Shown: one piece after another, positions 16,767-43,184 of the stretch
Layout of the letters: every line of letters begins with the position of its first letter
Numbering within the stretch: position 1 is the first letter of the stretch
From: a virus
Reading direction: 5' to 3' (one strand)
IMG/VR virus record: IMGVR_UViG_3300037153_000221
Span: 3,590 to 67,589 of that record
Length of the DNA: 64,000 bases
The notes under the pieces: generated by a model
The model's database searches: none
What the model saw: the letters and a program-made list of their open reading frames with translations, nothing else
Told to the model about the DNA's origin: nothing
Position numbers and translations under genes: made by a program

Positions 16767-17795
16767 TTAGGCGGCACGCGCGACGGCCTCGTTGAACGTG
16801 CCCTGTCGCCTCGCCATGGACTTGCCGATGTCGCGCTTGCTGATCTCCACGTAGCAGAGGGTCTGCTGGAGCGTGGCGTGTCCAAGCAGGCGCGAGACCT
16901 GTTCGAGATCCATGCCCGCCCGCAGCCACTCGGTGGCGCAGGTGTGACGCAGCCGGTGCCAGCGCCACCCCATGCCCAGCGAGTCCTGGAGCAGCGAGCC
17001 GAAGCGATCCTCGGGCATCGGGTTGTTGCGCCACTGCGCGTAGCACACCAGCCACGGCCTGTCATGCGTCGGCCGCATCGTAGCTCTGAACTCAAGCCAG
17101 GCGTAAACGCGGGCGCGGGCCTCGTCGGTGTAGGGGATCTCGCGGATCTTCACGTAGCCGGTGGTCGGGTCGGCCTTGCCACGCACGACGAAGTATTCGT
17201 TGTCGTAGTGGACATCATCGACCGACAGTCCGTAGATCTCCGACGAGCGCATCCCCAGGTCCAGCGCCAGGCGGATCATGCAGTCAAGCTGGAGCCGGAA
17301 GGCGTGCCGCCATACGCGCGCCCACGGACCCTTGCCCTCGATCCAGCGCCGCACCGCAAACGAGCCGCGCCCCCGCTCCCCGGCCGCACGGTCCGGCAGG
17401 TACGGGAGCTTGCGGTTGATGGTCTCCCAGAAGACGGCCATCTCCGCTGTGGTGTACGGCTTGGGCTGCGTGACGCCGGTCGAGCCGCGCGGATTCTTCA
17501 CGGCCTTCAGGCGCAGGTACTGGTCGGCGGTGATGACGCCAGCCGTGTACGCCCAGGTGAAGAACCCGCGCAGCATGTTCATCTTCTTGCGCACGGTGTT
17601 GACGTGCAGGCCACCTGCCAGCAGTTCGGACGAGTAGCCGAGGAAGTCGGCCGACGTGACCTGAGAGAGATCGCGGCCCTCCTCCTCAAGTCGAGACTCC
17701 AGTCCGCCGAGAACGATCAGGGTCTCGTGGCACCGGCCCGGCGAGATGTTGTTGAACACCAGGTGCTCGGCGGTGAAGCGCTCGGTCACGTTCAT
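16767..17795 (-). CDS. Tyrosine recombinase / integrase (XerC/D-like)
   Basis: Catalytic R (GMRSSE), K (RGK), HxxR (HRLRH), LLGH and Y; N-terminal SAM-like domain. Confidence 0.9.
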   Translation of the reverse strand: MNVTERFTAEHLVFNNISPGRCHETLIVLGGLESRLEEEGRDLSQVTSADFLGYSSELLAGGLHVNTVRKKMNMLRGFFTWAYTAGVITADQYLRLKAVKNPRGSTGVTQPKPYTTAEMAVFWETINRKLPYLPDRAAGERGRGSFAVRRWIEGKGPWARVWRHAFRLQLDCMIRLALDLGMRSSEIYGLSVDDVHYDNEYFVVRGKADPTTGYVKIREIPYTDEARARVYAWLEFRATMRPTHDRPWLVCYAQWRNNPMPEDRFGSLLQDSLGMGWRWHRLRHTCATEWLRAGMDLEQVSRLLGHATLQQTLCYVEISKRDIGKSMARRQGTFNEAVARAA

Positions 17796-17983
17796 CTGAC
17801 GCGCTCGATCTTGCCGGACCCGCCGTCGCGGGTCACGTTGCCCTCGGTGATGCGCACCTCGCCCTGGCGCTCCAGTTCCAGCGCCGCCCGGCACTCCACG
17901 ATCCCGCCGACGTACAGCGTCTTGCTGTCACGCCGATCCAGCGCAGTGAGCAGCCTGCGCGCGCTCTTGCTCAACTCGGTCAT
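17792..17983 (-). CDS. Small hypothetical (winged-helix-like) protein
   Basis: ATGA-coupled to the recombinase gene. Confidence 0.5.
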   Translation of the reverse strand: MTELSKSARRLLTALDRRDSKTLYVGGIVECRAALELERQGEVRITEGNVTRDGGSGKIERVR

Positions 17984-27587: not shown

Positions 27588-27829
27588 GGCTTCGCTCGCT
27601 TTCGTTTCTTCGCGTCCCTACGTAGGGACTTGAGTTGAGTGATGGTGAGCGCACGGGCAGCGTGCGCCTGCGCCACGTCGTAGTGACGCCTGAACTCGAC
27701 CAGGCGTGGGTCGCCGTCGAGATCCAAGGTGGTGACACGGAAGAAGAACGGCCGCGAGTAGCGGCCGTCCTCCTTCACATCGGACACGATGACGCGCCCG
27801 ATCTTCGTTCCTTCGGGCGGGATGCTCAT
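27584..27829 (-). CDS. Hypothetical protein
   Basis: ATGA-coupled. Confidence 0.5.
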   Translation of the reverse strand: MSIPPEGTKIGRVIVSDVKEDGRYSRPFFFRVTTLDLDGDPRLVEFRRHYDVAQAHAARALTITQLKSLRRDAKKRKRAKP

Positions 27830-28809
27830 GTCAGCTTCTTCAACTGCTCCTGGAGCATCCGCGCCATGTCGTTGATCTCCTCCTGCTCGTCGCCGAGGAT
27901 GGAGGCGTACTCACCGGCACGGCGCTGGAGCGCACGGAACCGGCTCCAGTGGTTGGCGATGACATCGCTTCGGACGGCGCGCTCGCGCTGCTCGGTCCGG
28001 AGCTTGCGCACCTCCTGCATCGCCTCCTTGATCTCCTCACGGGCGTTGGCCATGTGGTGCCTACGGACCAACTCCCGTTCGCTCGCGCTGTCGGCGAGCG
28101 GGACGGCGTGCAGGTAGGCACGGCCCTTGTAGAGATCGTGCAGCATCTCCGACAGCGCCTCCACCTGCTCGGCGTGCCGTTCGGGGATGAAGTAGATCCC
28201 TCCGGCCTTGCCGCGCAGGTTCTCGCCGGACAGGCCCTCGACCTTGCGGGTCTCGTCGGCCTCGCTGCGGATGTAGTTGCGCACGACCCCTCGCACGCGG
28301 GCGCCCGTGATCTTCGAGGTGTTCTTGTCGTAGAAGTCCTGGATGGACTCCATCATGCCCAGCACCTCGGGACGCGAGACCCCGCCGAGCGCGTTGTACT
28401 TGATCGGGTCCGTGTCATCGTTCTTCATAAAGATGACGCGCATCGCCTTCGGGTAGTCCACGACCCGCTCGTCCAGGTCTCGCACGACGGTGGAGATCTG
28501 GTACACGCAGTCGTCGGCGCTCTCGGAGATCTGCACCACGTCGGTCTCGTGGATGACATCGCCGACGCGCTTGCGACCCTCCTGCTCGCGCATCGCGCGC
28601 TTGAAGGTGTTGATGGCCTTCGTGTCCTTCGGGGCGAGCGTCGGCGGAAGGCCCGCCTTGGCGAGCGCGAGCTTGAGCGCTCGCAGTCCGACCGACTCGT
28701 CCGGCACGCTGAACCAGGTCAGGTAGCCGAGAGGCTTGATCTTCTTGTCGTCGCTGATGGCGACGACCCCTTCGATGCTCTTGGGCATGGTCGGCATGGC
28801 CGCGTCCAC
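27826..28809 (-). CDS. DUF6744-like protein associated with the AAA-VWA pair
   Basis: 'LGYLTWFSV', 'GG.YF.P', helical C-terminus; downstream of VWA. Confidence 0.55.
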   Translation of the reverse strand: MDAAMPTMPKSIEGVVAISDDKKIKPLGYLTWFSVPDESVGLRALKLALAKAGLPPTLAPKDTKAINTFKRAMREQEGRKRVGDVIHETDVVQISESADDCVYQISTVVRDLDERVVDYPKAMRVIFMKNDDTDPIKYNALGGVSRPEVLGMMESIQDFYDKNTSKITGARVRGVVRNYIRSEADETRKVEGLSGENLRGKAGGIYFIPERHAEQVEALSEMLHDLYKGRAYLHAVPLADSASERELVRRHHMANAREEIKEAMQEVRKLRTEQRERAVRSDVIANHWSRFRALQRRAGEYASILGDEQEEINDMARMLQEQLKKLT

Positions 28810-28894
28810 ACTCCTTTCGATTCGTACATGGGACTGTAGTTATGGGACAGTGTACTACACGGGGTGGACAGATGACTGTCCACCCCGGTCCTGC

Positions 28895-30589
28895 TCAGGT
28901 GATGTGCGTGGCGAGTTGGGCGGTCGCCTCGCTCGGATCTTCGAGGTTGAAGTCGTGCACGTCCACGACGTTCTCCCCGCAGTAGTCGCGCAGGTACTGG
29001 AACGACCCGCCGATGCCGACGCCGTGGAACCTGACGCCCTTCGCATCGAGTCCGTCGCGCAGCATCTTGTCCTCGGGACCGAAGCTCGCCTGGCCGTCGC
29101 CCACGAGCACGATGTCCGCCTTGCGGAACTCGTTGGCGGTCTCCATGATCTTCTTCGCAAGCGCGACGCCCTGGAGGGGCACCGTGCCGCCACCGAAGAA
29201 GTGGCTCGCCATGTCCACGATGTCCTGCGCGTTCAGTTCGCGCTTGGCCGGGAACAGGAAGTGGTGGACTTCGCCACTGGACCCGAACCCGACGTACGCG
29301 AAGTCGCGGTCCTCGCGTCGGCAGATGTTCAGCAGGCAGCACGCGATGGCCTTGCACCACACGTTGCGCTGTCCGCCCATCGAACCCGACTCGTCGCCGA
29401 CCAGCACGATGGGACCGCGCCCGGCGTGCTCCTCGCCCACGGTGTCGTACACCATGAGTTCGCCGGACAGGTAGCGCATGTAGAAGTCGTCCTCGGTGTC
29501 CGGGTCCGCGAGCACGCCCAGTTCGGCCGGGAGGATGCGCCGTAGCTCATCTCCCAACTTGAGATCCACGATCTCGTCCTGACCGCCGACGACGCGCTTG
29601 GCACGCTCGAAGCGCATGTGCTGATCGAGTCGGCCGTACAGTTCGGCCACCGCCTTCAGCGTGGGATTGTTCATCCACATGTCGGCGATGGTCAGCGCCT
29701 GCTCGGGCGACTCGTAACGCGGCTCGCCCTTGTCCAGACCGGCACCGAAGCTCGGCATGTTGCCCGCGCTCTCGGCCGCAGCCTTCGCCTCCTTGACCGC
29801 GCTCACGACCGCATCGTGAGCGGCCTTCGAGAACGGCTTGGGGATGTTCGCAGCGACCGCCTGCGCCTGCGCGATGGCGCCGCGCTTGTCCAGGACGCCC
29901 TGGCGAATGGCGTCCACAAGCTCCTGCGGGATCGGCTGTCCGTTGGCGTTCAGTTCGCGCGCCTCCTGACGCAGCGACTCCAGTTCGTTGATCGCGCCGT
30001 CCGCCGTGTCGCGCGCCTGCTCGAACTCCTCGGCCATGCGAGCCTGTTCGACTAGCTCGTCACCGAGAATGGACTTCAGCGCGCCGATGGCGGCCATGGT
30101 GGCGACAGCGGCCGTGCTCGGACTGTCGCGGGTGATGTTGCGCGACTGCGCGTGATCGTCCTCGGCCGTCATCTTCGAGAGGATCTTCGCGTGATGCGCG
30201 ACGCCGGGGTCCACCTCGTCGGGCGAGAGGATCTGCGGCTCGCGTGCGTGGTGGTAGGAGTAGAACACATCTCGTGTCAACTCCTCCCACGCATCGTACG
30301 CGGGAGCGTTCTCGCGCGCCGCCTTCGCAGCACGCGCCTGCTCCTGGTAGGACTTGATCTCGTCCGGACTGGCCGTGGTGAAGTCCGGCGCGTCCGGTTC
30401 GGGCACGTCGGGCGCGATGTGCGGCGCGTCCTCGACGGCCATGCGCCTGAAGCGCGGGGAGTCGTCGGTGTAGTTGCCGAAGACCATCTTGTCCACGGAA
30501 TCGTGCTCCACGGACTGGCGCGGCATCTGCACGGGCGGGGTGTCACCACGCCGGTTGAACAGGCGGCGGATGATGTCGTCGTAACCCAC
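28895..30589 (-). CDS. VWA-domain (ViaA/CoxE-like) MoxR partner protein
   Basis: MIDAS 'DESGSM', 'GGGT', 'DIVLVGDG'; GTG start after AAGGAG. Confidence 0.88.
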   Translation of the reverse strand: MGYDDIIRRLFNRRGDTPPVQMPRQSVEHDSVDKMVFGNYTDDSPRFRRMAVEDAPHIAPDVPEPDAPDFTTASPDEIKSYQEQARAAKAARENAPAYDAWEELTRDVFYSYHHAREPQILSPDEVDPGVAHHAKILSKMTAEDDHAQSRNITRDSPSTAAVATMAAIGALKSILGDELVEQARMAEEFEQARDTADGAINELESLRQEARELNANGQPIPQELVDAIRQGVLDKRGAIAQAQAVAANIPKPFSKAAHDAVVSAVKEAKAAAESAGNMPSFGAGLDKGEPRYESPEQALTIADMWMNNPTLKAVAELYGRLDQHMRFERAKRVVGGQDEIVDLKLGDELRRILPAELGVLADPDTEDDFYMRYLSGELMVYDTVGEEHAGRGPIVLVGDESGSMGGQRNVWCKAIACCLLNICRREDRDFAYVGFGSSGEVHHFLFPAKRELNAQDIVDMASHFFGGGTVPLQGVALAKKIMETANEFRKADIVLVGDGQASFGPEDKMLRDGLDAKGVRFHGVGIGGSFQYLRDYCGENVVDVHDFNLEDPSEATAQLATHIT

Positions 30590-30727
30590 GGTACTCCTTC
30601 CTTGTTCGTGATTACAGTTCGTTCGTAAGCGGTGGTCGGCGCCCGCATGTCCATCCATGTCCGTCACACGGACGCCGACCACCGCTCACGCACAGGATGC
30701 GTGAGCGGTGTCCCTGGAGGGAAGTGT

Positions 30728-31978
30728 TCACTCCTCCTCGCCTGCGATGGTCTTCTCGACCCAGTTGTGCGCCTGGGTGATCTCGGACAGCACCGCCTCC
30801 AGGTCGGCGGTGTCGTGACCCTGCGAGCCGCCTTCGCGGATCTGGTCGTTCGCGTCGCGCTTGAGGCGCCGGAGGTCGCGCATGACCTTGAAGCCGCGCT
30901 CCATCTGCTCGTCGGTCGGCTCGCCGCCGTTCGCCTGGATGTCGCCCTTGACGGCATCCAGTTCGTTGAGCACCGGATCGAGAGCTTCGCGCATCCGCGA
31001 CGCCTTGCGGGCGAACACGTTGGCGAACTCCATGACGATCTTGTGCGCCGACTCGCGGTGGTCCGGGTGGTTCCACGCCATGTGCTGGCAGACGATCATG
31101 TCGTCGGTGGACACCGACCCTTCGCCTCGCGTCCACGCACGCGCCTTCATGGCGCGCAGCATCTGACCGATGCGACGCTGGCTCGGCGGGTGACCGGCGC
31201 TCGCCCAGCGCTCCTGCGCGATCTGCATGGACTCGATGACGGCATCGGGGATGATGACCGACATCGCCTCCATGCGCGCCTGACGGATCTCGTCCAGCGA
31301 GATGTTCGGAGCGTTCGACATGTCCACCGTGGACGCCGACGCCTGGTACTCGTCCTGGATGCGCATGACATCCTTGCGACCTTCGGGCGAGCGCACCGGC
31401 TGCACCACGAGCGAGATGCCCCAGCGGTCACGGAACGGTTGAAGATCCTCGCGGTCGGGAAGCTCGTTCGAGCTACCGAAGATGCAGAGGAGTTGCGACA
31501 GGTCCAGCGTCGCGCCGCCGACCTTCAGCTTGCGCTGCGCCATCACGTCCAGCAGCGCGTTCGCCATGGTGGGCGAGCACTTGAAGATCTCGTCCAGGTA
31601 GCCGAGAACGGCAGTCGGGAGAAAGCCGTCCGTGAGGCGTTCGATGCGCCCCTCCTTCATGGCCGGGAGCGAGCGCGGACCCAGCACGTCATCCGCGCTG
31701 GACTCCTTGAAGACCATGTAGTTGAACAGGTCGGACTTGCTCGCGCCCGAGATGCAGCGGAGCATCAGTTCGATGGCCCACGTCTTGCCCACGCCCGGAT
31801 CGCCGAGGAACAGCGGATCGACGCCGGACACGAGCGAGTTGCCGAGAAGTTCGATCATGTCTCGGCGCTCGATGTTGTACTGCGCGAGCCAGCCGTCCGG
31901 CGCGAAGATCTCGCGGTGCTTGACCACGAGCGCGTCCGTGACGGTGCCACGCTTGACTACGGGATCGGCGATTGCCAC
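30728..31978 (-). CDS. MoxR/RavA-family AAA+ ATPase
   Basis: GDPGVGKT; 'LDEIFK'; 'SSNELP'; 'FRDRW'. Confidence 0.9.
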   Translation of the reverse strand: MAIADPVVKRGTVTDALVVKHREIFAPDGWLAQYNIERRDMIELLGNSLVSGVDPLFLGDPGVGKTWAIELMLRCISGASKSDLFNYMVFKESSADDVLGPRSLPAMKEGRIERLTDGFLPTAVLGYLDEIFKCSPTMANALLDVMAQRKLKVGGATLDLSQLLCIFGSSNELPDREDLQPFRDRWGISLVVQPVRSPEGRKDVMRIQDEYQASASTVDMSNAPNISLDEIRQARMEAMSVIIPDAVIESMQIAQERWASAGHPPSQRRIGQMLRAMKARAWTRGEGSVSTDDMIVCQHMAWNHPDHRESAHKIVMEFANVFARKASRMREALDPVLNELDAVKGDIQANGGEPTDEQMERGFKVMRDLRRLKRDANDQIREGGSQGHDTADLEAVLSEITQAHNWVEKTIAGEEE

Positions 31979-31984
31979 TTCGTA

Positions 31985-33325
31985 TCACCCTCCAGGGGTA
32001 TCGTTGGACTCTAGTTCGGGGATTGCGCTGCGCATGGCGCTCAGTTCGAGCATGATGCGCTGCGCTGTCCCCTCGAAGGTTCGCGCGTGCTGCGCCTCAC
32101 GGCGAGCACGGACACGAGCCTTGAACTTCTCGACGGCTCGGCGCTCGCGCATGTGCGCACGCTCGGCGCGCTCCAGCCTGCGCTGCTCACGGGCACGCTC
32201 ACGCTTGCCCTTCAGGTAGTTCTCGCCATCCTTTCGCATGGCGTGCGTGCCGTCCACCAACCTCGGCACGCCGTGCGCGTCGCGTGACACGGCGGAAAGG
32301 GGGATGTAGTTTCGTTCGACCCACGCAGCGTGCGCCTCACGAGACTGGACGACCTTCGCGCGGTCGGCGCGCCAGGCTTCCAGCCACCCTTCCCAGCCGC
32401 CGTACGCATGGAGCGCGGCTTCGCGCGAGGACCACGACGGCCAGCGCTGCCCGGCGAACCACTTGCCGTTCATGTACGCATCCCAGCGGTCGTGCCGGTT
32501 GCGGAAGCGCTGGCAGTGCAGGCACTGCTTGTACTCGACGCGCGACGTTCGGTCGAACGAGCGATAGGTGTCGTCGTACTGGGCGTAGTTCTCGGACCCC
32601 CACACGATCACGCCGTTCACCATCGTTCGCCTATAGAGCGACTTGCGTTCGGGCGTATACCGGCGCCAGTACGTGAACTCGCCGGGCTTGCCACGATTCC
32701 ACAGTCGTTCGCCGACCATGTACGTGTCCACGCCTGCGAACTCCTCGGACGTGGAGACCATCTCGTCCTCGGCGTACGAGTAGTGCTCCACGGTGCCCGC
32801 GACGCACAGGTGGCGCTCGGTGTCCACCGGCTCGGGTCCGGGTTCGTACGCATGGAAGCGCTTGGGCACGGACGGCTCGAAGACCTCGGGTTCGGGGTCA
32901 TCCGCGCGCGGGATGATCGGAACGCCGTTCGGCAGGTTGTACGAGGACAGCCACGCCTCGCGCACCTTGATGCGTCCACGCGAGATGGACTCGACTTGCT
33001 GCGCGGCGATCTTCACGTTCCAGTGGTCGCCGGGCGTGTCCGCCCATCCGCGTACGGGGTAGTAGTCCTTGTTGACCACGATCTCCACGCACTCGCCGCG
33101 CACGTTGCGGCAGATGCGACCCATTGGGAAGTGATGGCCGAACGAGTACACCACGTCGCGCGTGATGATGATGCTGTTCGTGTCGCCGCTGTTCGCCACG
33201 CACTCGGGCACGAGCGCGTGCGCGGCCCAGAAGTCCACAGCTTCGCTGTTCGAGCGCGGCTTGCGCACACGGCGTCCGCCGTTCTTCTCACGCATGATGG
33301 CGTCACGCCAGTCACGAATGTCCAT
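31985..33325 (-). CDS. Hypothetical protein, 446 aa (Trp/Arg-rich)
   Basis: 'VYSFGHHFPM' N-terminal motif; GAGGAGG RBS. Confidence 0.65.
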   Translation of the reverse strand: MDIRDWRDAIMREKNGGRRVRKPRSNSEAVDFWAAHALVPECVANSGDTNSIIITRDVVYSFGHHFPMGRICRNVRGECVEIVVNKDYYPVRGWADTPGDHWNVKIAAQQVESISRGRIKVREAWLSSYNLPNGVPIIPRADDPEPEVFEPSVPKRFHAYEPGPEPVDTERHLCVAGTVEHYSYAEDEMVSTSEEFAGVDTYMVGERLWNRGKPGEFTYWRRYTPERKSLYRRTMVNGVIVWGSENYAQYDDTYRSFDRTSRVEYKQCLHCQRFRNRHDRWDAYMNGKWFAGQRWPSWSSREAALHAYGGWEGWLEAWRADRAKVVQSREAHAAWVERNYIPLSAVSRDAHGVPRLVDGTHAMRKDGENYLKGKRERAREQRRLERAERAHMRERRAVEKFKARVRARREAQHARTFEGTAQRIMLELSAMRSAIPELESNDTPGG

Positions 33326-33530
33326 CGTTCACCTCCTCGCGGGTGGGGGGATAGGGGTACATGTCACGCAGCAGCGCATAGTCCTGCGCTGCACGCTGGA
33401 TTTCGGACTCCAGTTCGGAGTTCTCGCGCTTCAGGTTGCGCACCTGAAGCACCAGGAAGATGATGGCGCCGTACGCGATGAACAGCGCGAGCGCTGCGAT
33501 GGACGCGAGCGTGTGGGAGACTTCGATCAT
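33312..33530 (-). CDS. Small membrane + coiled-coil protein
   Basis: Transmembrane segment followed by a heptad pattern. Confidence 0.55.
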   Translation of the reverse strand: MIEVSHTLASIAALALFIAYGAIIFLVLQVRNLKRENSELESEIQRAAQDYALLRDMYPYPPTREEVNDGHS

Positions 33531-33688
33531 CGGCCGATCCTCACGAGGTGGAGCGCCGAGTAGTAGTCCTGCGGCCAGCGCGCAGGATCGACGTATCCGA
33601 CCTTGCGGTCGTACGCGCGAGCGTTCGCAACCCAGCGATACAGGGCAGCGCGCGCGGTGCGCAAACGGGCGAGGGCGAGCGGGGACAT
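33527..33688 (-). CDS. Small hypothetical protein
   Basis: GGAGG RBS; starts MSPLALARL. Confidence 0.45.
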   Translation of the reverse strand: MSPLALARLRTARAALYRWVANARAYDRKVGYVDPARWPQDYYSALHLVRIGR

Positions 33689-33921
33689 GCGAACCTCCAA
33701 ACTAGGGTCCAGGGTATCAGAAATACGGAAGCATGGACGCTCGCGCAGACGGCGCGGACGCCCGAGACAGCGGGTTCTTACAGGGAAACTGGCGTCCGTT
33801 CGTAGGCACGGACAGGCGGGAGGCAAAGTCTTCAGTCACGCCGTCCGGCTCGCGCTCGCACAGGCATCGGGACCCCTCTCGAAGCTGCGGCGCGCGCCTG
33901 GACGGCGTGACGCTTGTGACG

Positions 33922-34788
33922 CTAGTTGCGCCCGATGTGGGCGATAGCGTCCAGTGAGTCGGCGAACACGAGCACGGACCACTGTCCGCACTTCGCGCAT
34001 CGCTCCATCACCGCGAGGACACCGTGGTCCTCCAGTTCGTACAGCAGGCCACGCGCGACACCGCGCGAAACGTGGTCCAGAACGACGGTCCCCTCGTTCA
34101 TGCCGCCACCCACACGGGCGACGGCGCGAACGAGTTGGCGAGGTGACGCGCGAACGCGACCTTCGCAGCGTGGAACGTCGGGTACGAGTTGCCGGTATGG
34201 ATCTCGGCGTGGTACGCGCCCGGCGCCAGCGTGGCGTCGCACACTACGTACGGACCGGAGTCCGTTCGTAGGAGCAGGCCCACGGCGTGCGTGGTGCCGA
34301 GTTCGTCGCGCTCGAAGATTCCAAGGATCTCGGCGCCCTGTTCGTCAGCGCACTCGGCGTAGGCGCGGTAGCGCGAGGAGTGCATCACAGCACCTCCAGG
34401 TCGATGGCGGACAGGTTGTACAACTCGTAGGCGCACAGGACCGTGGTCTCCGTGCACCCGTGGAAGTCGGCGACCATGTTGGCCGCGAGCTTCGCAGGCA
34501 CGCTGCGCGAACGCAGCGCGAGGAAGTCCAGCGCGAGCGTGAGGCGGGCCATGCTCAGCATCGCCCCTCCCCGAAAGCCGCCACGCGGCGCTCGCGCTCC
34601 ACCTGCTGCGCGTGGCGCCGGGGGTAGGCGACGCACTCGCTGCACTTGCCCTGCGTGATGTGCAGCACGCGGTCGTCCAGGCGGGCGACGGGCATGTCAT
34701 CCCAGCACTCTGGACAGCACACGATCTCTAGCGCGTGCACGGGGTCGCGCTCGCGCAACTCGTTCTCGACTGCTTGCACGGGGTCCAT
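33922..34788 (-). CDS. Four tiny coupled early genes (33922..34101, 34098..34385, 34385..34561, 34555..34788)
   Basis: Overlapping start/stop codons and RBSs; two carry CxxC pairs. Confidence 0.5.
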
Positions 34789-34887
34789 GCGTAACTCCAG
34801 TCTGTTCGTAGGTACAGGTACGTTCGTTCGTTCGTGTTCGCCCACAGACGTGAGCGAGCACCAAAGAACGCCCGAAGGCGGGGGGGC

Positions 34888-35217
34888 CTAAGCCCCACCC
34901 GCCTGCTTGGCGATGCTCTCCTGCGCGGCCTTGACCGCCTTGGCGAGCGCGTCCAGCTTGCCGGTAGCGGCGAACGCTCCGGCGATGTCGGCGGCCGTGA
35001 ACACCTTGCCGCCCGCGATGGCCGAGCCGACCGCGTACTCCGGGACCGCGATCTGGTTCACGCCCACCTGATGGATCAGGTAGGTGTCGTCCGGATCGCC
35101 CGCGCGGACACCCACGCCCACGCGCTCACCGATGTCGGCGTTGAGCGTGAGCGTGCGGGAGTCGTCCAGCACGTAACGAGCGCGGCTCTTTGCCGCGCCA
35201 TTGGTGGCGAGTGCCAT
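34888..35217 (-). CDS. First gene of the leftward early operon, Ala-rich
   Basis: GGAGG RBS; clean codon usage. Confidence 0.7.
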   Translation of the reverse strand: MALATNGAAKSRARYVLDDSRTLTLNADIGERVGVGVRAGDPDDTYLIHQVGVNQIAVPEYAVGSAIAGGKVFTAADIAGAFAATGKLDALAKAVKAAQESIAKQAGGA

Positions 35218-35290
35218 GATTGCGTACCTCCAGGGTGCGCGTAGGATTCACACGAGCACAGGCGCCCGTTCGAGCGCGTGCACTTGCACT

Positions 35291-35640
35291 TGCATTGGAG
35301 ACACGGAGCAGCCGCGCCGATGTGTGACATCGGCGCGGCTGCGCCGCATCCTGCACTGGAGACACGGAGTCGGCGCGCCGATGTGTGACACGGCGCGCCG
35401 GACGTGAGTCCAGCGTGAGAGTCGGTCTCCCGGTCTCACGGGAGACACGGAGCGGAGACCCCCCGATGTGACGTCACACCCTGGACGGTCCGCTCCGTGT
35501 CTCCAGTGCAGGAAGCTGGAACGCTGGACGGTCCGACTAGGCGTCACACCCTGGACGGTCCGCTCCGTGTCTCCAGTGCAGGAACGCTGGACGGTCCGAT
35601 GTGTCACACATTGGACGGTCCGCTCCGTGTCTCCAGTGCA
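35291..35640. repeat. Mirror-symmetric array of six bipartite units TGCACTGGAGACACGGAG-N14-TGTGAC
   Basis: Three forward units (35291, 35352, partial 35441) and three reverse units (ending 35510, 35580, 35640) meet at the palindrome TGTGACGTCACA, 35467-35478. Confidence 0.9.
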
Positions 35641-35849
35641 GCACGCTGGACGCTCCGTGAGAAACCCGGACCCTACCCGCCGATACCGGCGACCGACTGA
35701 CCGGACTGACTAGCTCACGGCGCGTCCAGCGCCATGGCCCTGGAGCACCCTGGACAAACGTCCGACTACAGTTGGACGCTAGGATCTCCGATAATCGTCG
35801 TGAGCGCGCACCCGCGCGCCGAACCCACCGACACACTGGAGACCCCCCA

Positions 35850-36827
35850 ATGTCACTCAAGCTCTACACCGCCGCTGATCGGCGCCGCATGAATCTCGTC
35901 ACTGCTGACGACATCTTGAAGTCCACCCGTGCCGCCGCAAAGCTCGGCCTACAGGGCGAGCAGTGGAGCGCGGAGGATCGCGCGGAGTGCGCGGCTCACC
36001 TCGTCACCCTGGTTATGGGGCGCGCCACGCTGGACGCCGAAACCGTCCGCACTCCGGCGCACGGGAACCTGTACCCCGCGCGCCTGATCGGCATGGACTT
36101 TCTCGTCAAGCGTGCGGGCGACTGGCGCCGCGCGCGTGAGGCGCAGATTGCGCGCGATGCGGCGGACGCTAACGAGCGCGGCGGCATGGCCGTGCACGGG
36201 AGCACTACCGGCGATAACGGCGACGCAAACAACCTCACCCCGTGGGGCGCGCGCATCCGCGCGGTGGAGATGCTCCAGAACGCGGGCATCATCGGCGCAA
36301 CGATGGACGCGCCCGCGCCGATGTGGTCGCTTGCCTACGGCGCCGCGCGCGGCGCCGCCGGTATCGAATCGCGCGAGGTTGCGGAAGAACTGGAGTTGAC
36401 GTTTGACACCTATCGCGCGCACCTCAGCCGCGCGGCTAAGACGCTCCGCGCGTGCGGCGGATGGGACGCATGGCTGGACGCGCTGCTCATGGAAGGCATC
36501 GACTGGAGCGCGCCGGGCGAGTACGTGCACGAGCGCGCGGAGGACATCGCCTCCCGCACCGCGCGGGCAAACGCGCGAGATGCGGCCGTGAGCGTGCGGA
36601 CCGTCAAGCCGCGCACCATCGGCAAGCGCGCAAGCGCCGGAGCCGCCTGGAGCCGCGCGCGAGTCTCGCCCGCCTTCCGCGTGCGGACCGTCATCGACCC
36701 GCTACCCGCGCGCACGCACGACCGACTCCGAAAGGCGTCCGACATGCGGCGCAAGCGCGCGGCGGCGGTCACTCCGGCCGAACGGCGGCAGGCGCGCCTA
36801 GCGGCTGGACTCCCGGTCGAGTCCTAA
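35850..36827 (+). CDS. HTH (sigma region 4-like) DNA-binding protein, 325 aa
   Basis: 'IESREVAEELELTFDTYRAHLSRAAKTL'; basic C-terminus; first rightward gene. Confidence 0.6.
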   Translation: MSLKLYTAADRRRMNLVTADDILKSTRAAAKLGLQGEQWSAEDRAECAAHLVTLVMGRATLDAETVRTPAHGNLYPARLIGMDFLVKRAGDWRRAREAQIARDAADANERGGMAVHGSTTGDNGDANNLTPWGARIRAVEMLQNAGIIGATMDAPAPMWSLAYGAARGAAGIESREVAEELELTFDTYRAHLSRAAKTLRACGGWDAWLDALLMEGIDWSAPGEYVHERAEDIASRTARANARDAAVSVRTVKPRTIGKRASAGAAWSRARVSPAFRVRTVIDPLPARTHDRLRKASDMRRKRAAAVTPAERRQARLAAGLPVES

Positions 36828-36845
36828 ACGGACAACCCCCCGGTT

Positions 36846-36870
36846 GCGCCGGAGCTTTCCGCTCCGGCGC
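36846..36870 (+). terminator. Hairpin after 35850..36827
   Basis: GCGCCGGAGC-TTTCC-GCTCCGGCGC. Confidence 0.45.
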
Positions 36871-37196
36871 CCGCCCCCCACATGGCTTCCGCTCTCTCGC
36901 CAGCCCTGAAAAAAACCCCTGCAAATGGACCGAACTCGCGCTCGTCCAATGTGCAACTCAAGTTCAGCTTTGCACGTTTGGACGGGGCAGATTCAACCCG
37001 AAACCGACTGGACCGGGGGCAGTCCACGCCTACTGTGCAGGACGGGTACGGCGGACCCCTCGAATTGGGTCCGGTCAGCACGGAAAGCCCCTGCAAATCC
37101 CCAGGCTGGATACCGCTGGAGGAATCTCAGCGGTCAATAAGACCCCCTCCCCTACCCAGCCGGGGTGGAGTCCCGGCGCGGTGGTAGGGTCCAGGG

Positions 37197-37322
37197 ATGG
37201 CGTATGTGCTCGCGGCGGTGTGCGTGCTGGTGGTGCTCTGGCACGTCTTCCTCGTACCCCCGGACTGGCCGGAGGAGGATGGACCGCTCGCGGAGATCTA
37301 CAACCTGGACGACTACCGTTGA
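37197..37322 (+). CDS. Small membrane peptide (probably leaderless)
   Basis: MAYVLAAVCVLVVLWHVFLV...; TAGGGT 6 nt upstream of ATG. Confidence 0.45.
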   Translation: MAYVLAAVCVLVVLWHVFLVPPDWPEEDGPLAEIYNLDDYR

Positions 37323-37697
37323 TGCCGAGATACGAGCCGATCCCTGAACTAGAGTCCGCACGTTTGGAGTCCCAGGCGGCACGCAGGTGGTTCAACCTGC
37401 TGGACGAACTGGACTGGGTGGCGTACACGTTCGACCCCGTGTACGGACCGACCAAGGACTTCAACTTCGACTACGCGGCCGGGAAGGGCGCCAGGGTCAT
37501 CGCCGAAGTGCTCGCCCACCCGCGAGGCCACGAACTCGCGCAGCCGAGGCAGTACCCGTGTCCACGATGTTGGGGGACGGGAAAGCCTGGAGTCCTCGGA
37601 CAGCACGGACGACGGCTGGTGGGACTGCCCGACCTGTCAGGGCACCGGCAAGCTCGCCGACCGGCGCAAACCCCAAACTGGAGTCGTGAACTCGTGA
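37322..37697 (+). pseudogene. Frameshifted gene with a split DnaJ-type zinc finger
   Basis: CPRCWGTG in one frame, CPTCQGTG in the +1 frame; that frame ends in a GTGA overlap with the next gene. Confidence 0.45.
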
Positions 37698-37900
37698 CCG
37701 CACCCGACACTCACAAGTCGTCCACCATCACCGACCATCCCTTCACCCCGAGGACCGAGGCGACGCTGGCGCTCCCGATGTACCACGGCTTCGTCACCGT
37801 GGACCCCGAGCATCGCAAGCGCCTGCCGCCCAATCCATACCTCTGCGGCCACCCCGGCTGCAACCTGGCCGAGAGCGCGCACGAGACCACCACGAACTGA
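37694..37900 (+). CDS. Small hypothetical protein (H..C..C..H)
   Basis: 'DHPF...LCGHPGCNLAESAH'. Confidence 0.45.
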   Translation: MTAPDTHKSSTITDHPFTPRTEATLALPMYHGFVTVDPEHRKRLPPNPYLCGHPGCNLAESAHETTTN

Positions 37901-37910
37901 TAGCCTCACC

Positions 37911-39005
37911 AGGTCCGTCGCGGGCGCCTATACCGCGAGGTGAAGGGTCGGTCCGGCCGGGACAAGGGCCAGCGCAACCGTGCACGGCGGCGCAAGGTAC
38001 TCCCCGGCTGGGGCAACAGATGCCATGGCAACGCGGCTGATCTGCCCCCGTTCCCGCGACGGACTTCCTCACTTATACCTTGTCAAGTCCCGTCGCCTCC
38101 CCGGACGACCGAAAGTCCAACGGTAATCCAGGCGTAGGCGCCACCGGCTCCCCCACCCAGCCGCAGTTCAGGGGTTTCCACACGGCGGAACGCTGGACCG
38201 CTATGGTCAGACATGGGACGGTAAGCGTCCAGGGGGGCGAATTGTCACCGGGAGGACACCTTCTGCCCGGAAATCGCAAACACCGGAAGTTAGTGGCGCA
38301 CGGACGGTCCGGCCCGTGCTACAACGCTTCAGGCCGTCAGGGAAGACGGCTCGCCAGCGTCCTGACCCCCAGACGGCGCTGGCCTTCGAGAGAGCACAAC
38401 GGGGGCGGCACGCGACCAGCCTCCCCGCGTCGCGGCGCCGCCCTCGAAGTGTGCCGTCCGTGCCCGGCGCTAGCAGCCGGTCGTCGCGGACCCCCCGGAG
38501 TCCAAAAGTACCCCGCGCGCGCGTTGGCCCACGACGCCAGTCCGCAAATAGACCACAGCGCGCCAGGCCCGTCAGATGTGCTACGGTCCGCGCGAGTTCA
38601 CGATCTGGTCGCCTCGCCACCCGGCTCGCCGGGCGCCCTGGCGGCGGACACGAACTCTGAGCGACGGGGGCGGGCGAGCTTCGACGCCACGCCCGCCCCC
38701 CGAGCCTCCCCACTGGTGACCCGACGCCGCCACGGAGAGACACGAGGGGGAGATCGGGTGGGCGGCCCATCCCGCCGTGGCGCCGCCCACCCGAACGTCC
38801 AGTTCCGGCCATGCTCTGGGCGTGATAGCGTTCCGCGCGTGCGGGCGGACGCGGGTCGAAGTCGCGGCCCGTCCGCACACCCCTCGTTCCGCTCCGACGC
38901 CAATACCGGCTGGGACGCGGAGCACCCCCGACCGCCCCTCCACTCCACCTGGACTCCTGCTCAAGACACGGCCGGGGAACAGGCCGGGCCGAAGTGGAGG
39001 GGCGG
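37911..39005. ncRNA. Candidate large structured RNA or sRNA cluster
   Basis: At least six perfect 8-13 bp stems, some nested; no credible CDS. Confidence 0.5.
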
Positions 39006-39042
39006 AAGGCTTCACAAACGAAGTGTCCACTTGGAGGTGGAG

Positions 39043-40952
39043 ATGGCGTCGATACTCTGGCGAAGCAAGGACAAGGGCCGTCACGAATGGCTCGTGTCCG
39101 ACACCAACGACGAGGCGTACGGCCTCAACGTCGCGGTGAACACCCACCCGTCCGTGATCGGCGGGCACGACCAGCGGTTCGTGGAGACCCAGATCTACGA
39201 CCACGCGCAACCGCGCAACTCCCGTTGGACGATCACCGTGCTCGACCGCGAGACCGGCGAATCGTTCAGCTTCCACGAGAAGGGCGGCGAAGGCCAGAAG
39301 GCGCTCACCCTGCGCGCGCTCACCGTCGCCCGCGTCAAGCCGAGGCTGGCGGCATGACACGGCGAGAGAAGGACATCGTGCGCTACTCGCTCGCCTACCT
39401 GGCCACAGGTGACGGGCGCAAGGCCCGCAGCCACACCGCCACGAACCTGCCGCCCGAGACCCGGCGCGAGGTGCGCAAGATCACCGACAAGATGCGCCCG
39501 ATGGTGGTCGCCCGCGTCCGTTCGGTCTTCGGCACCAGGGGGCGCTGATGTACGTCGTGGAGATGACGAGCAAGCTCGCCATGCCGGTCGGTGACAGTGA
39601 CGAGCCGACCATGCTCGTCCAGGAATACTTCGAGACCTACGAGCAGGCCAAGGCGTTCATGGACACGCTGGAGATGAAGCGTGGACGGGCCATCAGCATC
39701 GAGCACCTGACGCTCTACGAGTGGGGGACCGAGCGCAAGATGGGCGCCGTGCTCCAGATCCGCACATGAACGACCACCCCACCGTCCACGAGATGTGCCT
39801 GGAGATCCTGGAGCGCCTGGACCGGATCGAGAACCTGGTCGAGTGGGTGCTGCGCGGCAAGCTGCACGAGATCCGCACGGCCGACATTCCGCGCGAGACC
39901 GACATCCATCTCGCCGGGGAGATCGAGCGGGCGCTGTATCCAGGAACTGAAGTTCAGCCGTAATGGTCGGCACGCACCAGCAGCGCTTCCGCTTCCAGTG
40001 TCCGGTCTGCTGGGCCGGGCCGGGCAAGCCGTGCGTCCACACCGAAGGTCCGCGCAAGGGCAAGACGTGCAAAGCCCACTGGGAGCGCTGGAAGCGCGCG
40101 AAGATCGCCTCGGACCCGGACAAGTTCCGGGTCAAGGCGGTCTGGTCCAGTCAATTCGAGTCAAACCGGAGAAGTCACTGATGAAGAAGCTGCTGTACGA
40201 CAAGTCGCTGCACGTCCACGGCTCGCTGCGTGTCCAGGTGGGCGGGGACCTATCGGCGAACTGGCGCGGCCCGGTCGTCATCACCACCTACGGCGGTGGC
40301 GGCGGTCAGCGCAACATCTACGGCACGAAGACCAGCGAGGCGCGCGCGTGGGCCATCGCGGTCCTGGAGGCGTGCAAGGTCGCCGACGACGAGTACGGCC
40401 TGGAGGTGGACGAGAAGGGCGAGGCCACCCTGATCGTGGACCTGGTGGACAACACCCAGACCAAGCGCCCGAAGCTCCGGTCGGCTGCATGACGCTGGAG
40501 CACAACCGCAGCGCGCCGAGCCGGAGCGTCACGGACATCGGACCTGGCGACTACATCAAGGTCGGGCGCCAGTGGAAGCAGGTGCGCTCGAACAGCGACC
40601 ATGGCGCCGACCGTCCACAGCGCGACGGCAACTGGCGCGTGACCACCACGGACGGCTCCACCTACTCGGGCTGGGGCATCAACCTGTACGCCAAGGCCGA
40701 GGACATGGTGCAGCGGTGACCGTCGAGATCGACACGCCGCAGACCGAGACCACGCGACCGCCGATCCGGGCGATACCGGGTCGGCGGCGCTACCGCGTCA
40801 CGATCATCAAGCCCGCCCAGGACATCGTGCACCGCCACCTGAGTGAGCCGATGGCCGACCAGATGGTCAAAGCGATGACCGGCGTCATGTACAAGCAGAA
40901 GGCCGACGAGACCGATCTGATCCTCGGCGTGAAGATCGAACCGGAGTTCTAG
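39043..40952 (+). CDS. Run of eight small coupled genes (39043..39357, 39354..39548, 39548..39769, 39766..39963, 39963..40181 zinc finger, 40181..40492, 40489..40719, 40716..40952)
   Basis: ATGA/TGATG/TAATG overlaps; 'CPVCWAGPGKPC...H..R' phage zinc finger in 39963..40181. Confidence 0.6.
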
Positions 40953-40974
40953 CTTCCGGCGTAGATTATGGGGT

Positions 40975-42288
40975 ATGGCCGTCACCCCACAGTCGCTGAA
41001 CAGGCATACGAAAGTCCTCCGCAACGCTGGGCTGCCAGACGACGCCATCGGCGTCCTGCTCAGCATGTCGCGCGCGGATGTCCACAACGTCACCGAGGAC
41101 CCGAACTACCCGGTCCCGCCGTGCATGAGCAACAACGCCGTCACGCGCTGCATCGACCCCAGTGGCGGCGGCGGGGGCGGCACCCAGGGACCAGAAGGTC
41201 CGCAAGGGCCGGAGGGTCCGGCCGGGCCTGCCGGTCCACAGGGTCCGGAGGGGCCTCCGGGTCCGCAGGGCCTGAAGGGCGACACCGGAGCGACCGGCTC
41301 CTCGGGCGCGCAAGGGCCGAAGGGCGACACCGGGGCCAAAGGTGTGGACGGCAGTCCGGGCGTAGCGGGCGCGAAGGGCGATCCCGGACCGCAGGGCGCG
41401 CTCGGCCCGCAGGGTGATCCGGGTCCGCAGGGCGCGCAGGGTCTTCAGGGCGTCCCCGGCGCCAAGGGTGACAAGGGTGACAAGGGTGACACCGGCGCCC
41501 AAGGCCCAAAGGGTGACACCGGACCGCAAGGTCCCGGCAAGGCCGGGCAGCCGCTGGTGTTCGAGTTCAACGCGGTGTCAGCCCTCAAGAGCGCGCCGGG
41601 TCCGGGCGAGGTGTGCATCAACGGCGCCTGGAACACGGTGGACACAATCTACCTGAGTGGACAGGATGCGGACGGCAACAGCATCGCTGACATCTTCAGG
41701 ATGGGCTACATGGGCGGCGTTGCCACGATCCAGCAGATCGGCACGACCAACCTGTGGAGGCAGTCCACAGCCATCGTGTATGTCAAGGCGGACGGCCATG
41801 TGGAGTTGGTCGGCCTGCCGTACCCGATGTACGCCGACACCGCCCTTCCTAACGCCCGCGTGCGGGTGACGCTCCTGCCGATGGTGCCGCTCCCGGTTGG
41901 TGGCGCCTACAACGACGTGCTCACGCGCGGCGAGACCGAGGAGGAACTGTCATGGCGGACGCTGAAGTTCCAGATCGGGCAGTCCTTCACAGTCCCCGGC
42001 GCCGTGAGCGCGGCGACGCTGCCGGTGATCTACGTGCCGGTGACGTTCCCGCAGGCAGTGAGGCTGGTAGGCGTGCGAGCGGCGCTCCAGTCCGGGACCA
42101 GTGTCGTGGCCCAGATGCAGCGCAACGGCTCGAATCTCGGCTCCCCGATCACCGTGACGCCGACAGCGGCCACGACGGCGTTCAGCCAGGCGCTCTCGAA
42201 TAACGACCGCCTCGGCGTGGTGCTCTCGGCGCCGACCGGCTCTCCGGTCGGCCTGTCGCTCACAGCGATCCTGGAGCACTCGGTCTAG
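40975..42288 (+). CDS. Collagen-like fibre protein
   Basis: Long G-X-Y run (about 41188-41537); beta-rich C-terminal domain. Confidence 0.8.
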
Positions 42289-42327
42289 CTCGCGCGGGCG
42301 CTCAGCATCGTGTAGCATCCTGCGACA

Positions 42328-43184
42328 ATGAGCGATGCTGAGCGCCCCGACATCCGGCCGACCCGCTGGCGAGCGGTGATCGTGGCCGAGTTCACGACGC
42401 ACGACTACCCGGCCAGCGAGGGCAACACGGCCGCACGCCAGGCCAGCTTGGTCCGCGACGCGGCGATCCGAGGCGAGCGAGACATCAACTCAAGTCGTCC
42501 AGTAGTCCTCCTCCAGAACCTCGAACGGGTCGATGCCTAAGCGCAAGCTGGACTCGAAGCGTGCCATGACGATCCTGGCGGCGGTCCCAATAGACGGGGG
42601 CCTCACACGCCGGGAGGTGGCCATGGCGGTCAGTCCGATCTCCGATCAGACCGTCTACAAGTACCTGGAGCAGATGGTGCGCGACGGCTGGCTCAGGAAG
42701 GACGGCGGCGCTGTCAAGGTGTACACGCGCAAGTGGCACCTGGACCGCTGGTTCACGCCGATGCACCTCCCGACCGCCGTCTTCATCAACGAGGACGTGA
42801 TCCTCGGACCGTTTTGCCGGAACTGCGGTTGGAACATCGACATGCACGGAGGCCGGACGCGCCGCTGTCCAACCGACTTCAACCCCTTACTAGGCGGGAG
42901 AGCCTTCCATGGGAGCCGTGCTGTTCGCAGGGATCGAGAGCGTGACGGGTCGAGAGATCCGTCTGTGGAGCACGCCACTGGCGATCCAAGTCGCTGATGG
43001 TCCACTCCAGCGCGTCGATATACACCGAGGCGATGATGTGAAAATCGCCAAGGAGATGATGGGGTCCGTCTGCGTGGTGGCGCGCGTGAACGGCAAGCTC
43101 TATGTCGCGTTCGATCTGATGACGTGGCGGACCGCCAGTGTCGAGCAGAAGCGCGAACTGGAGTCCAAGGCGAGGGCTGCATGA
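42328..43184 (+). CDS. Three small genes (42328..42540; 42533..42997 wHTH + Cys/His; 42909..43184)
   Basis: 'LTRREVA...SDQTVYKYLEQMVRDGWL' winged-helix pattern. Confidence 0.5.

Follow-up and report, generated by a model that had tools for sequence, protein, structure and literature searches.

A structured untranslated stretch with a candidate small RNA in a temperate-type phage genome from soil

Phage genomes are tightly packed, and 1.1 kb of phage DNA that holds no gene calls for an explanation. We asked what occupies positions 37901-39042 of a 64-kb window of phage DNA, which corresponds to bases 3590-67589 of a linear 67,589-bp record in IMG/VR (CheckV completeness estimate 77%), and whose coordinates are used throughout. 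An earlier note made from the letters alone had proposed a new large non-coding RNA or a cluster of small RNAs here. The stretch belongs to no known RNA family. Tentatively, and at a little less than an even chance, we read it as a leader or spacer on the + strand, structured and untranslated, in which separately folded modules (A-D) accompany a small RNA of ~150 nucleotides (nt) whose plausible antisense target lies in the gene next door.

The stretch is non-coding by GC content at third codon positions (GC3), by codon usage and by homology. GC by codon phase is flat across it (0.71/0.72/0.67), whereas the genes in this part of the genome have GC3 of 0.84-0.96, and codon-usage log-odds in all six frames lie between -0.39 and -0.67 bits per codon, resembling the wrong frames of true genes, compared to +0.28 to +0.76 bits per codon for eight true genes. 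Stop codons show no depletion (31 versus 34.8 in shuffles), and overall GC is 70% versus ~66% for the window. In Pfam, nothing matched the translations of seven open reading frames (ORFs) of the stretch at E of 0.1 or better, and the 321-amino-acid (aa) translation of 38080-39042 found 0 matches among 1.84 billion representative proteins. The R/P/G-rich overlapping ORFs had been described beforehand as shadows, and phase GC, log-odds, stop counts and the empty Pfam and protein searches all bear this out. A protein-coding reading, in which ORF 38080-39357 or some - strand ORF is translated, can point to the longest open run in the stretch, where the frame of the gene at 39043 continues open for 334 codons, a marginal result against shuffles (P = 0.049); set against six of six frames with negative log-odds, the absence of GC3 periodicity, undepleted stops and the null Pfam and protein searches, that reading is hardly credible.

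Stem excess and modular folding

To quantify base pairing we counted perfect stems of at least 10 bp whose arms lie within 200 nt of each other, in 37905-39045 and in 2000 dinucleotide shuffles. The native sequence holds five such stems versus a shuffle mean of 0.58 (standard deviation 0.76), a count that 0 of 2000 shuffles reached (maximum 4). At 4.38 stems per kb the stretch has 5.6 times the mean of the whole 67.6-kb record (53 stems, 0.78 per kb), and only the repeat array at ~35.3-35.6 kb is denser. Under a stricter hairpin definition (stem of at least 9, loop of at most 60), 3 of the record's 49 hairpins fall in the stretch, with 0.83 expected. The structured elements on the + strand are as follows.

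37911-38066, + strand: Module A, a multibranch domain with a perfect 12-bp closing stem (closing-helix probability 0.93 in the global fold)
38282-38481, + strand: Module B, a long closing helix round four inner hairpins (helix probabilities 0.96-0.99)
38742-38887, + strand: Module C, a four-way junction with an 8-bp closing stem; perfect stems
38886-38923, + strand: short hairpin between modules C and D, with a 7-bp helix (probability 0.99 in the global fold)
38932-39005, + strand: Module D, a hairpin with a 13-bp perfect stem (folding z -3.57 for 38925-39012; minimum-free-energy (MFE) frequency 0.35)

Structure is more exceptional on the + than on the - strand in every module. Folding z scores against shuffles are -2.45 on + versus -1.25 on - for module A (37905-38075), -3.90 (0 of 200 shuffles as good) versus -1.06 for module B (38280-38485) and -3.95 (MFE frequency 0.21) versus -1.38 for module C (38747-38890), and the longer piece 38560-39045 reaches -4.20 on + (0 of 100 shuffles as good) and -2.70 on -. 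The native + strand of modules B and C also has the lower absolute energy, even though the shuffles of the G-richer - strand fold better. This bias fits structure at the RNA level on the gene-sense strand and is not what double-stranded palindromic binding sites would predict. Module A starts 11 nt past a stop codon, with the most U-rich tract of the region adjoining its 3′ side, and the arms of module D are anti-Shine-Dalgarno-like (5′) and Shine-Dalgarno-like (3′).

The structure is real but modular, with modules A-D closed separately and no continuous fold. Folded as a single piece, 38076-38600 is no better than its shuffles (z -0.93), and 150-nt windows starting at 38050-38250 and at 38450-38600 fold at the level of a background of 145 such windows taken from the record's first 14.5 kb (mean z -0.24, standard deviation 1.11). 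The description of this region as 1.1 kb of densely base-paired DNA in the earlier note was therefore overstated in extent, whereas the stem excess and the modules themselves stand: the six stem pairs it named are all perfect complements exactly where it placed them, and the comparison with dinucleotide shuffles that it proposed as a check comes out in favour of the modules. We also compared modules A, B and C as possible paralogues of one another and rejected this idea, and 11-mers of the region do not recur elsewhere in the record beyond chance-level single hits.

A short RNA and its predicted target

Eight public soil sequencing runs, found with the region as query, contain words of 37600-39400, and two of these are metatranscriptomes. 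We aligned four runs over 33000-43000, comprising RNA runs X6 and X7 from two studies and DNA runs X3 and X4. In X6, a 151-nt contig consists of 38605-38746 with 0 mismatches followed by adapter letters, giving a 142-nt insert; in X7, a contig contains 38613-38746, again with 0 mismatches and with adapter letters on both sides, giving a 134-nt insert. The two fragments differ at the left and share the right end 38746, and two fragments on one 140 nt with an identical end are unlike random cover of 1.8 kb. All remaining RNA-run pieces in the aligned interval are spurious matches of 33-38 nt with 3-5 mismatches, and contig gaps outside 38605-38746 are no evidence of silence there. The adapter orientation in X7 places the first mate on the - strand, so that under the usual stranded chemistry, and with the adapter-to-mate assignment that we presume, this fragment would be + strand RNA with its 3′ end at 38746. 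In the DNA runs the phage is present at ~2-3x depth with no differences inside the region. In the reading that we favour, a small RNA is made or accumulates as a discrete species between modules B and C.

38579-38587, + strand: extended -10-like word TGCTACGGT (TG-n-TAnnnT), a candidate promoter read from sequence
38594-38746, + strand: candidate small RNA of ~150 nt, seen as 38605-38746 and 38613-38746, with a start at ~38594 predicted from the -10-like word and the 5′ stem-loop
38666-38700, + strand: strongest hairpin of the small RNA, with a perfect 11-bp stem and a 13-nt loop (probability 0.92)

The -10-like word, which had been noticed earlier at about 38579 and is confirmed here as TGCTACGGT, lies 18-26 nt upstream of the left ends of the RNA fragments; a predicted 5′ stem-loop at 38594-38657 (helix 38594-38599/38652-38657, probability 0.95 in the global fold) follows it after 7 nt, and transcription from this word would start at ~38594. 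Libraries of this kind lose 5′ ends, and the observed left ends, 11-19 nt inside the predicted start, fit that. Beyond hairpin 38666-38700 the small RNA continues as a C-rich tail to 38746, its putative natural 3′ end. Expression had been supposed to be early; for a short RNA seen alone in bulk soil, expression in the prophage state would fit at least as well.

39043-39357, + strand: first gene past the gap, encoding 104 aa (codon log-odds +0.55), preceded by a Shine-Dalgarno sequence at 39033-39042

The loop of the strongest hairpin offers a possible target in this gene. Nine of its 13 nt, 38681-38689, perfectly complement 39044-39052, that is, the last two bases of the start codon and the next seven bases of the gene, and the 9-mer complement of the loop has this single site on the + strand of the whole window. 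A 9-nt match to the start region (-20 to +20) was reached by 2.35% of 2000 shuffled RNAs (P = 0.0235). Scanning the whole record for duplex energy with the RNA 3′ tail gave no useful signal, the genome being GC-rich. We regard the loop-to-start-codon complement, read from sequence, as a lead and not a result.

These features can be arranged into a working model of the leader or spacer, which is placed between a short regulatory block, including a putative extracytoplasmic function (ECF) sigma-like protein, and a long rightward operon that leads into virion genes. The small RNA would originate by transcription from the -10-like word or would be cut from a read-through transcript. The exposed loop of its strongest hairpin would then pair with the start-codon region, and this pairing, acting in cis or in trans, would keep translation of the first downstream gene low. 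The flanking closed modules might serve as stabilising, processing or termination structures and would in that case resemble the leader RNAs of cluster A mycobacteriophages, which are processed and stable.

Relatives, control-region repeat and rival readings

Rfam at gathering thresholds returned 0 matches in the whole 64-kb window, and relaxing the limit to E of 10 over 36700-39200 gave six matches, all to eukaryotic or viral families, of which the best scored 26.8 bits versus the 74 needed. Families with no match at gathering threshold include GOLLD, ROOL, HEARO, raiA, C4, 6C, group I and group II introns, RNase P and tmRNA, and ARAGORN found 0 tRNA or tmRNA genes in the window. Both scans thus agree with the earlier statement that no tRNA, tmRNA, RNase P or intron is recognisable here, and the comparison with GOLLD and ROOL drawn alongside it yields no match even at Rfam E up to 10. 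With blastn (word 11), 37700-39250 matched none of 50,697 phage records, and the region had no match among plasmids either. With tblastn, the neighbouring proteins found none in phages, and a 595-aa protein found only distant vWA-type matches in unrelated phages. Scans of IMG/VR with the 104-aa protein, a 481-aa protein and alignment A1 found none, and a scan of GTDB genomes with alignment A2 found none; in JGI metagenomes, alignment A1 recovered one 2.4-kb contig (L002), which ends inside the upstream gene and so does not include the region. Exact DNA patterns from the small RNA and the hairpins had 0 matches in IMG/VR and 1 in GTDB, an Actinomadura hairpin that has the same arms as 38666-38700 and lies between convergent genes, in terminator position. 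We rejected it as a homologue and consider it an unrelated hairpin.

Upstream of the stretch, a repeat array at 35290-35650 separates the two divergent gene arms of the genome and consists of units of ~40-55 nt, three per orientation. A like array occurs at 849-1149 of contig L002, upstream of a homologous gene; here the ends are conserved (GTCACA...GTGTCTCCAGTGCA) and the 17-18 nt in the middle vary. The array is a candidate promoter/operator set or origin, and a copy of its unit lies inside the stretch.

38187-38232, + strand: degenerate copy of the array unit (alignment A4); GGAACGCTGGAC occurs thrice exactly in the window, at 35518, 35581 and 38187

This copy does not include the most conserved part of the array unit and is not structured above background. 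An array 9-mer, GGACGGTCC, occurs 8 times in the window versus 1.9 expected, five times in the array and once inside module B at 38302.

Several points weigh against the reading of a structured leader with an antisense small RNA. RNA support may amount to as few as two molecules, with one insert per library at depths of 3.6 and 6.1, and the data are contigs that give neither level, true ends nor strand, the strandedness of the libraries being off record. The common end 38746 falls within the 5′ arm of the closing stem of module C, at the base of this very stable structure, and could be an artefact of priming or reverse transcription. On the + strand the RNA piece folds no better than shuffles (z -0.95; -1.88 for 38613-38746) and the - strand does slightly better (-2.16). 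On the + strand of 35000-41000 we found no two-hexamer sigma-70 promoter and no hairpin-plus-U terminator; the 2 terminator-like sites of that interval are both on the - strand, versus 2.9 expected, and TGnTAnnnT words are individually common in 64 kb. The 9-nt complement was found post hoc, with P of ~0.02 uncorrected, and pairing of the whole RNA with the start region has an unremarkable duplex energy (P = 0.20). No homologue of the region was obtained from phage, plasmid, IMG/VR, JGI or GTDB sequences and hence there is no covariation support, and perfect Watson-Crick stems are also compatible with DNA palindromes. Finally, 38187-38232 at least, which aligns with the repeat unit except for its most conserved part, has the look of a decayed copy from the control region, and some of the stretch may be junk.

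A larger RNA would account for the modules differently. In this case one multi-domain non-coding RNA of 0.6-1.1 kb, on the scale of GOLLD or ROOL, would extend over modules A-D, with the 140-nt piece as a fragment of it or a product of its processing. Four closed modules, + strand-specific stability over 1.1 kb, raised GC and the absence of coding signal all agree with such an RNA, and the global fold contains long-range helices such as 38185-38195/38826-38836 (probability 0.92), although long-range pairs in a 1.1-kb MFE structure are unreliable. RNA was seen at 38605-38746 only, however, the two ranges of windows between the modules fold at background and include a segment like a decayed repeat, and Rfam gave no large-RNA match at E up to 10, nor did any search give homologues from which covariation could be drawn. 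A single large RNA is possible, with only the sum of the modules speaking for it, and we judge it quite unlikely. Of the original proposal of a new large RNA or small RNA cluster, what holds is the non-coding status, the + strand structure and one short RNA in two libraries; only ~140 nt are seen as RNA and the middle shows no structure above background. The most far-reaching version, in which the whole 1.1 kb is one + strand RNA of four autonomous domains that is processed at the foot of module C to free a small RNA of ~150 nt, which in turn silences the first gene of the late operon through its hairpin loop, we consider a long shot.

Alternatively, the stretch could be a spacer with no RNA function of its own, composed of gene and repeat remnants and of ordinary GC-rich terminator or insulator hairpins that part an early gene block from the following operon, with the RNA piece as a stable decay intermediate of read-through transcription. 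The decayed array unit and the unstructured segments are what such a spacer would contain, the orphan neighbour genes mark a poorly constrained part of the genome, single GC-rich hairpins directly follow genes elsewhere in the record (for example 36846-36870 and 42296-42347), and the Actinomadura hairpin shows the arms of 38666-38700 in terminator position. Nested multibranch modules are nonetheless unlike simple terminator hairpins, and the strong + strand bias, the 5.6-fold stem density and the discrete RNA with a common end in two libraries weaken the case for an inert spacer. GC above that of the genome also argues against decay, as decaying sequence in high-GC genomes usually drifts to lower GC. 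On balance we hold this explanation to be unlikely, though worth keeping in view.

Function at the DNA level, as an origin of replication, a packaging site or a group of palindromes that proteins bind, would be consistent with core stems that are all perfect Watson-Crick palindromes, with two short motifs common to the region and the array at 35.3-35.6 kb, and with the cumulative G-C skew of the record, whose global minimum falls at window 39462 (record 43051), just right of the stretch. Yet the skew minimum derives partly from the region's own C-richness, the region contains no iterons or direct repeats and no AT-rich stretch (GC 70%), and a 9-nt actinobacterial DnaA-box consensus, with 1 mismatch allowed, is unmatched between 30497 and 40444. 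The strand asymmetry of folding is unexpected for double-stranded binding sites, and the array 2.5 kb upstream is a better origin or operator candidate. A DNA-level element is thus improbable.

Genome setting and comparison with known phage RNAs

The leader or spacer that we favour sits in a temperate-type, high-GC phage (window GC 66%) known from soil metagenomes alone. An integrase, a DnaB-type helicase, a PD-(D/E)XK nuclease, a RuvB-like ATPase, a MoxR/vWA pair and collagen-like fibre proteins are encoded in the window, a set that marks the genome as temperate-type and actinophage-like. Gene arms diverge at the 0.5-kb repeat array, leftward from ~35247 and rightward from ~35772. Two kb along the rightward arm, the non-coding stretch separates a run of small genes (35772-37900) from genes heading into the virion module.

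16767-17894, - strand: tyrosine integrase
37694-37900, + strand: upstream flanking gene, last before the gap, encoding a Cys/His-rich protein of 68 aa (GC3 periodicity in frame; codon log-odds +0.30)

Of the proteins encoded on either side of the stretch, the 68-aa protein has no Pfam match and no PHROG match, and the 104-aa protein is an orphan that finds itself only among 5.8 billion clustered proteins. At the head of the rightward arm, the gene at 35772-36827 (+ strand) encodes a possible sigma-like protein (351 aa; 325 aa in the comparison with relatives) that has seven relatives at 26-54% identity, all in Logan/ENA metagenome assemblies, and thus belongs to a family of at least seven members. 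The family has a weak match to LuxR/GerE-type helix-turn-helix domains (E 0.03), and with an AlphaFold model (mean predicted local distance difference test score 66.5) each of the top eleven Foldseek matches in the PDB library is an ECF sigma factor, if a weak match (E 0.02-0.23, TM 0.14-0.17). Taken together, the helix-turn-helix and model-based matches hint at a possible phage-encoded sigma-like regulator. Such a regulator and the repeat array would mark this area as the regulatory hub of the genome, consistent with a regulatory RNA or leader in it.

Soil DNA runs X3 and X4 contain a second strain of the phage, with differences at 35597-36299 and 39404-39416. Within the sigma-like gene the differences, eight of them in one 215-nt contig, are mostly spaced by multiples of three, a pattern that suggests purifying selection.

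Other observations concern neighbouring parts of the window. Directly after the sigma-like gene, 36830-37196 is a second gene-free gap of ~370 bp that opens with a 10-bp hairpin (36846-36870) followed by a C-run word shared with the 3′ arm of hairpin 38666-38700, and the interval 36800-36949 has a folding z of -3.29 on the + strand. In 37322-37697 (+ strand), two zinc-finger-like CxxCxGxG motifs lie in different frames, at 37559-37582 in the frame of the ATG at 37322 and at 37626-37649 in a frame stopping at 37695; a GGGGG/GGGAAAG run lies between them, GC3 switches frame there, and the cause is a +1 frameshift or else an indel of the assembly. In the soil DNA runs, the part of the fibre gene with collagen-like repeats, 41016-41683, shows very high summed depth and many joints to contigs of other organisms; this depth is repeat cross-matching and no feature of this phage. 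On the - strand, the leftward block 27826-33325 encodes a DUF6744 protein, a 595-aa vWA/ViaA-like protein (phrog_24053), a MoxR-type AAA+ ATPase and a 446-aa partner, and is an unusual accessory module for a phage.

Among known systems, we compared the stretch with the Pleft leader of cluster A mycobacteriophages (L5, D29, StarStuff). The passages of PMC5712189 on this leader describe a non-coding region of ~500 bp that gives abundant, stable, processed RNAs of 100-500 nt, present in lysogen samples too, and they treat stable non-coding RNAs of actinobacteriophages as known, with function still unassigned. As far as those passages go, in both cases several hundred ORF-free bp of an actinobacteriophage type of genome separate a control region from the next same-strand gene, and discrete small RNA species accumulate from this DNA, in the present case as a candidate. 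The two share no sequence similarity (blastn of the region against the 50,697 phage records), and the gap here has twice the length and, instead of adjoining the promoter directly, follows the divergent control region at a distance of ~2 kb. Cluster A RNAs have a common 5′ end at a mapped early promoter, whereas the fragments here have a common right end in contigs from two libraries.

The c4 antisense RNA of P1 and P7 offers a parallel for the predicted pairing. The passages of PMC8198154 on c4 place it in one operon with its targets icd and ant (the immI operon c4-icd-ant of P1). Like c4 as those passages describe it, the present candidate is a small RNA that precedes its complementary start site on a shared strand, and a loop complementary to a downstream start region is found here as 38681-38689/39044-39052, with P = 0.0235 post hoc. 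Rfam gave no C4 hit at E up to 10, regulation is predicted only, the downstream gene is an orphan with no antirepressor homologue, and the host clade differs. c4 uses two complementary blocks, whereas here there is one.

GOLLD and ROOL are likewise long, ORF-free, GC-rich, multi-helix stretches in phage genomes; the region described here differs from them in having no Rfam match, covariation support or evidence of a long transcript, and in being unstructured in parts. Lambdoid phages have a late leader laid out as pR'-6S RNA-tR' with Q antitermination, a layout resembled here by a short RNA that closely precedes a long late operon and is itself directly preceded by genes for small zinc-motif proteins. 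Neither a canonical promoter nor a hairpin-plus-U terminator was found in 35000-41000, no Q homologue was detected, and the RNA end 38746 lies 46 nt past the hairpin; this resemblance is an analogy only.

The candidate comes from a single genome of a phage lineage without cultured or database relatives, and its importance would rise with covariation among relatives or with a long transcript. The locus yields a concrete and testable hypothesis, that a hairpin loop acts as antisense to the next start codon, together with RNA evidence from the environment. Should the whole 1.1 kb prove to be a single RNA, it would represent a new class of large phage regulatory RNA and would imply that an actinophage lineage without cultured relatives switches from early to late, or in immunity, through RNA alone.

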